This document shows, piece by piece, positions 43,326 to 43,772 of a stretch of 64,000 nucleotides of DNA. This stretch comes from Escherichia coli (lineage in GTDB: Bacteria > Pseudomonadota > Gammaproteobacteria > Enterobacterales > Enterobacteriaceae). Below the pieces are notes generated by a model that was not told the DNA's origin, made no database searches, and worked only from the letters and a program-made list of their open reading frames with translations. How positions within the stretch are numbered: the stretch's first letter is position 1; every line of letters begins with the position of its first letter. Location: NCBI RefSeq assembly GCF_003334785.1, contig NZ_QOWV01000005.1; one strand, given 5' to 3'. The position numbers and the translations under genes were made by a program.

Positions 43326-43368
43326 AAATTTCTCCTCTGTTGTTTATTTGATACCCATCACACTTTCA

Positions 43369-43397
43369 TCTCCCGGTTTTTTCGCCGGGAGATTTTC
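43369..43397 (+). terminator. Rho-independent terminator after ubiH-ubiI
   Basis: tctcccggttttttcgccgggagattttcc. Confidence 0.7.
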
Positions 43398-43772
43398 CTC
43401 ATTTGAAATAAACTAATTTCACCTCCGTTTTCGCATTATATTTTCTAATGCCATTATTTTTTGATTTAGTGTTTTTTGACATTTTTTTAGCTCTTAATAT
43501 TGTCTTATTCAAATTGACTTTCTCATCACATCATCTTTGTATAGAAACTGGTGTATTTTTTGGTTTTTTATTCTGTCGCGATTTTTGCATTTTTTAACCA
43601 TAAGCTAATGTGATGATCAATTTTACCTTATGGTTAACAGTCTGTTTCGGTGGTAAGTTCAGGCAAAAGAGAACGATTGCGTTGGGGACCGGGAGTGGCT
43701 CCGATGCTGGGTTTCGTGGTGATAATTTCACCATGAAAAAGTTGTCAGCCCCGCTTATTCAATGAGGACAAG

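Follow-up and report, generated by a model that had tools for sequence, protein, structure and literature searches.

The 447 bp at positions 43326–43772 of the Escherichia coli DNA analysed here (a stretch of 64 kb, called the window below) run exactly from the stop codon of ubiI (visC) to the ATG of gcvT, according to the open reading frames and to the RefSeq annotation of an identical strain. A preliminary description of this DNA had spoken of a 447-bp ubiI/gcvT spacer, and this length is exact, because 43325 is the last position of the ubiI ORF and the gcvT ATG stands at 43773. The gene order on the plus strand is pepP, ubiH (40922–42100), ubiI, gcvT, gcvH and gcvP, as read from the ORFs, and the RefSeq annotations of K-12 and of a strain with 100% identity concur. 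The spacer and its K-12 MG1655 counterpart agree at 447 of 447 bp, and because of this identity we take the region to be the classical gcvTHP control region between ubiI and gcvT, with a probability of about 90%. Each of the 5426 complete E. coli genomes searched has a match to the spacer at ≥80% coverage, with a median of one copy per genome and a highest count of 2, and ubiI–gcvT synteny with a spacer of 340–730 bp is kept throughout the Enterobacterales. The 5426 genomes hold 5436 places for the full spacer, which means that an incomplete second copy is present in a few genomes, such as H15 with its 2 places; in one genome the ubiI–gcvT locus lies on a record labelled plasmid. Moreover, population diversity within E. 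coli steps sharply from one side of the promoter to the other: the final 148 bp of ubiI (43178–43325) are at least 99% identical to K-12 in 1043 of 5426 genomes, 90–95% identical in 963 and 80–90% identical in 15, and the first 148 bp of gcvT (43773–43920) are at least 99% identical to K-12 in 5379 genomes. The spacer was described as strongly AT-rich, which is borne out by a GC content of 0.358 (35.8%) vs 0.517 for the window; it is the second-lowest-GC 447-bp locus of the window, only 0.4% of 447-bp stretches being equally low, and its plus strand holds 184 T vs 103 A. The lowest-GC 447-bp stretch lies at 14837–15283 (GC 0.327, below the gcv control region) and contains two weak CRP-like matches (14880 and 14924). 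The features of the locus are collected in Table 1.

Table 1. Features of the ubiI–gcvT region, in window coordinates; distances are relative to the gcvT start site proposed at 43666, and conservation values come from the alignment of 28 Enterobacteriaceae
Feature	Position	Strand	Details
ubiI CDS	42123–43325	+	400-aa ORF; annotated ubiI in identical strain 720632 and in K-12; its stop is the left edge of the spacer
CRP-type box TTTGATACCCATCACA	43347–43362		One mismatch to TGTGAN6TCACA; centre about -311.5
ubiI terminator-type hairpin	43368–43393	+	10-bp stem AUCUCCCGGU/GCCGGGAGAU, 6-nt loop, then UUUCC
GcvA site 3 block	43399–43423		CTAAT 43413–43417, about -251; conservation 0.91; no variable column in 5 E. 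coli-type alleles
yqfI (27 codons, MSKNTKSKNNGIRKYNAKTEVKLVYFK)	43399–43482	-	Annotated 'protein YqfI', b4754; AAGAG SD-like motif 8 nt upstream of ATG
GcvA site 2 block	43429–43450		CTAAT 43445–43449, about -219; conservation 0.87
T-tract curved zone (curvature predicted)	43451–43598		GC 0.257; conservation 0.53; corresponds to the literature's Lrp-binding region
Promoter-like TTGACA-16-TATTGT	43476–43503	+	10/12 consensus; in the T-tract zone, ~160 bp upstream of the proposed start
GcvA site 1 block CATAAGCTAATGTGATGATC	43599–43620		CTAAT 43605–43609, about -59; conservation 0.88; 0 variable columns in E. coli
Proposed gcvT promoter	43631–43659	+	-35 TGGTTA 43631–43636, 17-bp spacer, -10 TAAGTT 43654–43659; read from sequence
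gcvT 5' leader	43666–43772	+	About 107 nt, GC 0.495; Shine-Dalgarno GAGGA 43764–43768
Predicted PurR operator ACGCAATCGTTCTCTT	43667–43682	-	About +2 to +17; conservation 0.93
Leader hairpin 1	43679–43707	+	Conserved core 43681–43689 paired with 43697–43705
Leader hairpin 2	43712–43738	+	UUUCGUGGUGA/UCACCAUGAAA; in the single-sequence MFE structure
Shine-Dalgarno block	43756–43772	+	Conservation 0.90
gcvT CDS	43773–44867	+	First gene of gcvT-gcvH-gcvP; ORF and RefSeq annotation

From the sequence we infer that gcvT transcription starts at about position 43666. This start and the -35 and -10 elements were assigned because of conservation, the element GGTGGTAAGTTCAG being nearly invariant, and because of the PurR box; the block from the -35 to the -10 element (43621–43665) has a conservation of 0.83. 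This proposed sigma-70 promoter is weak; a consensus promoter scan left it uncalled, below its threshold, as would be the case for an activator-dependent promoter. The promoter-like element within the T-tract zone is a strong sigma-70-like match and is poorly conserved beyond E. coli; its -35 hexamer overlaps the start codon of yqfI on the opposite strand.

Conservation was measured on a spacer alignment from 28 Enterobacteriaceae, whose loci were collected by one DNA-pattern scan of genome contigs. The conserved blocks in this alignment are sharply bounded, with values of 0.87–0.93 in the GcvA, PurR and Shine-Dalgarno blocks vs 0.53 in the T-tract zone. The spacer holds three CTAAT motifs, all on the plus strand and one in each predicted GcvA block, which corresponds to 6.7 per kb vs 0.31 per kb in the window. 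When compared with shuffles of the AT-rich spacer itself, this enrichment was not significant (p = 0.18), and the motifs were given weight for their conservation and position. The CRP consensus at one mismatch or fewer occurs at 3 sites in the whole window, and the spacer box is one of them. Its right half, GTCACAC, is kept in 28 of 28 Enterobacteriaceae, and its left half in Escherichia, Salmonella and Citrobacter. Wonderling and Stauffer reportedly described, in 1999, a far-upstream CRP site of gcv centred at about -313, and the box at 43347–43362 matches what we take to be that site. For PurR, a search with ACGCAAACGTTTTCNT at up to 2 mismatches returned 43667–43682 as the sole match in the window, and the box in other genera reads AACGTTTGCGT, which is closer to consensus. 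A perfectly palindromic PurR consensus at up to 3 mismatches did not pick up the gcv operator, whereas the asymmetric consensus did. A PurR-like box with 3 mismatches to the palindromic consensus, AAGCAACCGTTTACGT, lies at 63089–63104, within an AT-rich gap (63085–63531, GC 0.376) and ~35 nt upstream of the likely start of uacT/ygfU, a uric-acid permease gene on the minus strand (MSAIDSQ...). The Lrp consensus YAGHAWATTWTDCTR gave one match in the spacer at up to 3 mismatches, and 58 in the window vs 70 expected, so that this consensus is not discriminating. Hence a motif search for GcvA, Lrp, PurR and CRP, which had been proposed as a check, is positive for GcvA, PurR and CRP, and the region does not stand out for matches to the Lrp consensus. 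The zone between the distal and proximal GcvA blocks is nevertheless AT-rich, predicted to be bent and fixed in length, as fits an Lrp region. The footprints of the Stauffer laboratory reportedly span -271/-242, -242/-214 and -69/-34 for GcvA, -229/-92 for Lrp and -3/+17 for PurR, with CRP at about -313. If the start is placed at 43666, these coordinates coincide to a few bp with the conserved blocks, which is to be read as a consistency check only. GcvA is known to protect regions of 35 bp and 57 bp upstream of gcvTHP, both containing CTAAT (PMC5002191), and the footprint coordinates above were cross-checked only against these two. The presence and conservation of the CRP box, the PurR box and three CTAAT blocks are in line with the multi-factor, protein-based control that had been suggested for gcv.

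The AT-rich part of the spacer, 43399–43665, has a GC content of 0.288, and the spacer is rich in T-tracts. A or T runs of 4 nt or longer occur 14 times in the spacer, 12 of them as T runs on the plus strand, and the T6–T7 tracts lie at 43457, 43472, 43482, 43556, 43564 and 43590. The multiple A/T tracts of the preliminary description are thus real: seven runs of at least 6 were counted vs 1.2 expected, and 0 of 2000 shuffles of the same composition reached 7. Curvature, which had also been suggested, was computed with a wedge model using the dinucleotide angles of Bolshoy et al. 1991, and the values are approximate and are predictions only. In this model no position of the 64-kb window is more curved than 43480, which falls among the T-tracts at 43457, 43472 and 43482, and the segment 43430–43600 has an end-to-end/contour ratio of 0.736, below 99.8% of window tiles and 98.3% of shuffles. 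The model therefore supports intrinsic curvature of the zone 43451–43598.

The primary sequence of the T-tract zone is little constrained. It is 90–95% identical to the K-12 allele in 3008 of 5426 genomes and 80–90% identical in 1123, and in six Escherichia sequences it diverges 1.4–1.7 times faster than the third codon positions of ubiI. In the same six sequences, the GcvA site 1, promoter and PurR blocks have 0–3 changes. The zone thus appears to evolve at about the neutral rate, and the idea that it is exceptionally hypervariable within E. coli was rejected, as it diverges merely 1.4–1.7 times as fast as ubiI third positions. The spacing of the conserved blocks was surveyed in the 69 enterobacterial species in which all anchors were found. 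The distance between the anchors of GcvA sites 3 and 2 is 26 bp in all 69, that between sites 2 and 1 is 170–172 bp, and that from site 1 to the -10 element is 50 bp in 68. In these species the length of the T-tract zone is kept within 1 bp while its sequence is nearly free, and the length of the leader varies from 92 to 137 nt. A fixed length combined with a free sequence fits the prediction of face-of-helix looping with a bent, protein-coated spacer; Stauffer and Stauffer reportedly carried out part of a spacing analysis by insertion or deletion in 1998. As far as sequence comparison can tell, the spacing data fit the accepted loop model well.

The same composition could be read quite differently, as foreign or H-NS-silenced DNA or the remnant of an insertion that holds no dedicated control region, since a GC content of 0.26–0.29 together with predicted curvature is typical of H-NS targets, and E. 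coli genomes differ greatly in the T-tract zone. We regard this as scarcely credible, and foreign origin is refuted by distribution: none of the 5426 E. coli genomes lacks the match, which has a median of one copy, its synteny and internal spacing are maintained over 69 enterobacterial species, and its divergence follows that of ubiI third positions by a constant factor of 1.4–1.7, as for vertical, near-neutral evolution.

The intergenic span described as a spacer is not empty, as the minus-strand gene yqfI, overlooked in the preliminary description, is annotated within it. YqfI is identical to the K-12 protein at 27 of 27 residues and lies at the same position, on the minus strand between ubiI and gcvT. 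In the annotation rows sampled, PGAP gives 'protein YqfI' for the K-12 allele only, and variant alleles at the same place are called 'hypothetical protein'. The gene covers GcvA blocks 3 and 2; its C-terminal 17 codons sit on them, and its start codon (43480–43482) falls outside the conserved blocks. If yqfI were a selected, functional protein gene, coding constraint would explain the conservation of 43399–43450, and the CTAAT blocks would simply encode the C-terminal half of YqfI. SPA-tagged YqfI has been detected in K-12 and the gene was positive in tetracycline ribosome profiling (VanOrsdel et al. 2018, PMC6001520), both of which speak for such a gene, as do the annotation of the ORF in every sampled E. 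coli genome, the SD-like AAGAG ahead of its ATG, and a C-terminal motif, IRKxNAKxxVKLxYFK, which tblastn recognised as far as Serratia and Yersinia. However, the intact 27-codon ORF is restricted to Escherichia and a few Citrobacter; stop codons interrupt the frame in most Citrobacter, Salmonella arizonae and Silvania, other genera lack a start or a stop, and the DNA is conserved in the genera with a broken frame as well. Moreover, conservation by codon position is 0.73/0.69/0.75 in yqfI vs 1.0/1.0/0.76 in gcvT, so yqfI has no third-position relaxation and no codon periodicity. Within E. coli there are 0 synonymous vs 2–7 nonsynonymous differences, which cluster between one GcvA block and the next. 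The N-terminal half lacks conservation (0.46–0.58), a 27-codon ORF starting with ATG arises by chance in 52% of shuffles of this A-rich strand, and NCBIfam has no model for YqfI. Hence we consider it unlikely that constraint on the protein shaped this segment. Because the frame is broken elsewhere, codon periodicity is absent and the changes are all nonsynonymous, the conservation of the motif was read as that of DNA sites, and on these alignments the conservation of yqfI is that of DNA sites and not of a protein. A promoter scan and inspection by eye of the minus strand gave no convincing sigma-70 promoter for yqfI. Most likely yqfI is a young, Escherichia-restricted ORF that happens to be expressed, without demonstrable selection at the protein level; since YqfI is made in K-12, it may still have a function. 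Among the intergenic small proteins tagged by VanOrsdel et al., yqfI has the same sequence and position as here; the ORF overlies footprinted transcription-factor sites, and purifying selection at the protein level is not apparent.

A hairpin that was likewise overlooked (43368–43393) occupies the interval from the CRP box to GcvA site 3. It folds with a dG of -17.6 kcal/mol (z = -6.1), 0 of 200 shuffles fold equally well, and its stem shows compensatory changes across genera. A terminator scan of the region reported none, the UUUCC tail being too short for the criteria of the scan. This hairpin is most likely the terminator of ubiI.

The preliminary description had called the spacer a long AT-rich leader, and this part of it fails: the AT-rich part lies upstream of the proposed promoter and would be left untranscribed, and the leader is only ~107 nt long with a GC content of 0.495. 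It had also stated that no tandem glycine riboswitch is present, and Rfam agrees. A permissive scan (E ≤ 10) of 43000–44100 returned no glycine riboswitch and no family in the leader, and a scan of the whole window at the gathering threshold returned no glycine riboswitch. The riboswitch hit that the description had named as its own refutation therefore did not appear. Weak matches to RsaE, Yfr1 and ar15 (E = 1–6) were dismissed as chance, as they align merely to the ubiI terminator hairpin. At the gathering threshold the only Rfam matches in the window were 6S RNA (ssrS, 38274–38457, minus strand, 139.8 bits), a Sib antitoxin RNA (37475–37625, minus strand, 133.8 bits), naRNA4 (51968–52045, minus strand, 75 bits) and ES036 (24361–24403, minus strand, 47.3 bits); the 6S and Sib RNA genes lie upstream of pepP, as expected for the K-12 neighbourhood.

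The leader holds two hairpins, for which covariation was examined in 39 Enterobacteriaceae. Hairpin 1 was recovered in the RNAalifold consensus, with 9 pairs; both partners have changed in 4 of these, and pairing holds in 93% of cells. In hairpin 2, 75–78% of cells are paired and 9 of 11 pairs are changed on both sides, one of them occurring as CG in 13 sequences, UA in 11 and UG in 4. Taken together, 84% of cells in the two hairpins are paired vs at most 53% with slid partners, with 65 cells changed on both sides vs at most 34, and the E. coli leader folds better than its shuffles (z = -2.7). The alternation of GU with GC and of UA with UG indicates that pairing takes place in the plus-strand, i.e. 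sense, RNA. A third helix (alignment columns 50–53 with 100–103) was unconvincing, being mostly invariant with one pair changed on both sides. Neither these gcvT leader hairpins nor the overlap of the GcvA sites with yqfI were found described in the literature searched. A 10-codon uORF on the plus strand (43733–43765), whose TGA overlaps the gcvT Shine-Dalgarno sequence, also lies in the leader, and E. albertii retains it with a GTG start; as a conserved element it was rejected, since the frame is shifted in E. whittamii and Citrobacter has neither start nor stop codon, and it is probably fortuitous.

Covarying hairpins in this place invite the reading that the gcvT leader contains an RNA sensor, a glycine riboswitch or another, and that the glycine response is partly post-transcriptional. 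The two hairpins, one of them also found by RNAalifold, and the z-score of the fold lend it some support, as does the fact that glycine riboswitches govern gcvT in many other bacteria (PMC13104608). On the other hand, Rfam is blank for the leader at both stringencies, and Enterobacter cloacae, Kluyvera and Lelliottia, with leaders of 92–95 nt, have lost hairpin 2 together with the segment that follows it. The loops and junctions are unconserved in the alignment, with no trace of a ligand pocket, and established genetics assigns the glycine response to GcvA and GcvR. Many 5' UTRs contain two plain hairpins, whose effect may be limited to mRNA stability. An RNA sensor is thus very unlikely here, and the leader hairpins probably affect mRNA stability or translation. 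It is also rather doubtful that the hairpins are a cis-regulatory RNA adding post-transcriptional control of gcv, by binding of a protein or sRNA or by gating of the RBS, or that transcription of yqfI across these hairpin-distal GcvA sites (3 and 2) exerts feedback on loop formation. In Bacillus, Burkholderia, Streptomyces and Neisseria, the glycine riboswitch (RF00504, the original 'gcvT motif') performs the same task at the same place upstream of gcvT. That task is the induction of the glycine cleavage genes when glycine is high. In contrast to RF00504, the gcvT leader here is without an aptamer, and sensing is done by proteins (GcvR binds glycine) which act on DNA and not on mRNA.

The region as a whole agrees with the K-12 gcvTHP control region studied by the Stauffer laboratory, which is regulated by GcvA/GcvR, Lrp, PurR and CRP, in sequence and in flanking genes, and the CTAAT blocks, PurR box and CRP box lie at the positions reported for K-12. 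The K-12 layout of three GcvA sites, two of them adjacent and far upstream and one overlapping the -35 element, appears to be matched as well. The gcvA–gcvB intergenic GcvA site has the same regulator and the same CTAAT core (PMC5002191). At gcvB, however, the sites are promoter-proximal (-65 and -43), whereas two of the three sites of gcvT lie ~220–250 bp upstream, and a bent spacer is needed. We infer the mechanism for this locus by carrying it over from the established K-12 work. From left to right, the layout would comprise a CRP site, the ubiI terminator hairpin, GcvA sites 3 and 2, ~150 bp of bent T-tract DNA, GcvA site 1 over a weak -35 element, a conserved -10 element, a PurR operator at the start, and a two-hairpin leader of ~107 nt that has a strong Shine-Dalgarno sequence. 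Lrp would coat the T-tract DNA and bend the intrinsically bent zone further. Without glycine, GcvA–GcvR at the distal and proximal sites would be joined via the Lrp-bent DNA to form a repression loop; glycine would free GcvR, and GcvA bound upstream would then activate RNA polymerase. PurR and CRP bring purine and carbon inputs to the control of gcv. PurR with hypoxanthine or guanine would add roughly two-fold repression at +1, and CRP–cAMP would supply the carbon-source input. The GcvA/GcvR/Lrp loop is the accepted model, from work of the Stauffer laboratory (PMC13104608).

The region is already known and ordinary, its promoter having been dissected since the 1990s and its sequence being unchanged from K-12. 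The small additions are that the spacing is fixed while the sequence is free, that yqfI overlaps GcvA sites and lacks a coding signature, and that the hairpins of the leader covary. The second of these is a caution for small-ORF annotation, as yqfI is detectable and looks conserved merely through its overlap with transcription-factor sites. The first makes the locus a clean textbook case for the comparative genomics of a looped promoter, in which the contact blocks are frozen while a bent spacer of ~150 bp drifts between them.
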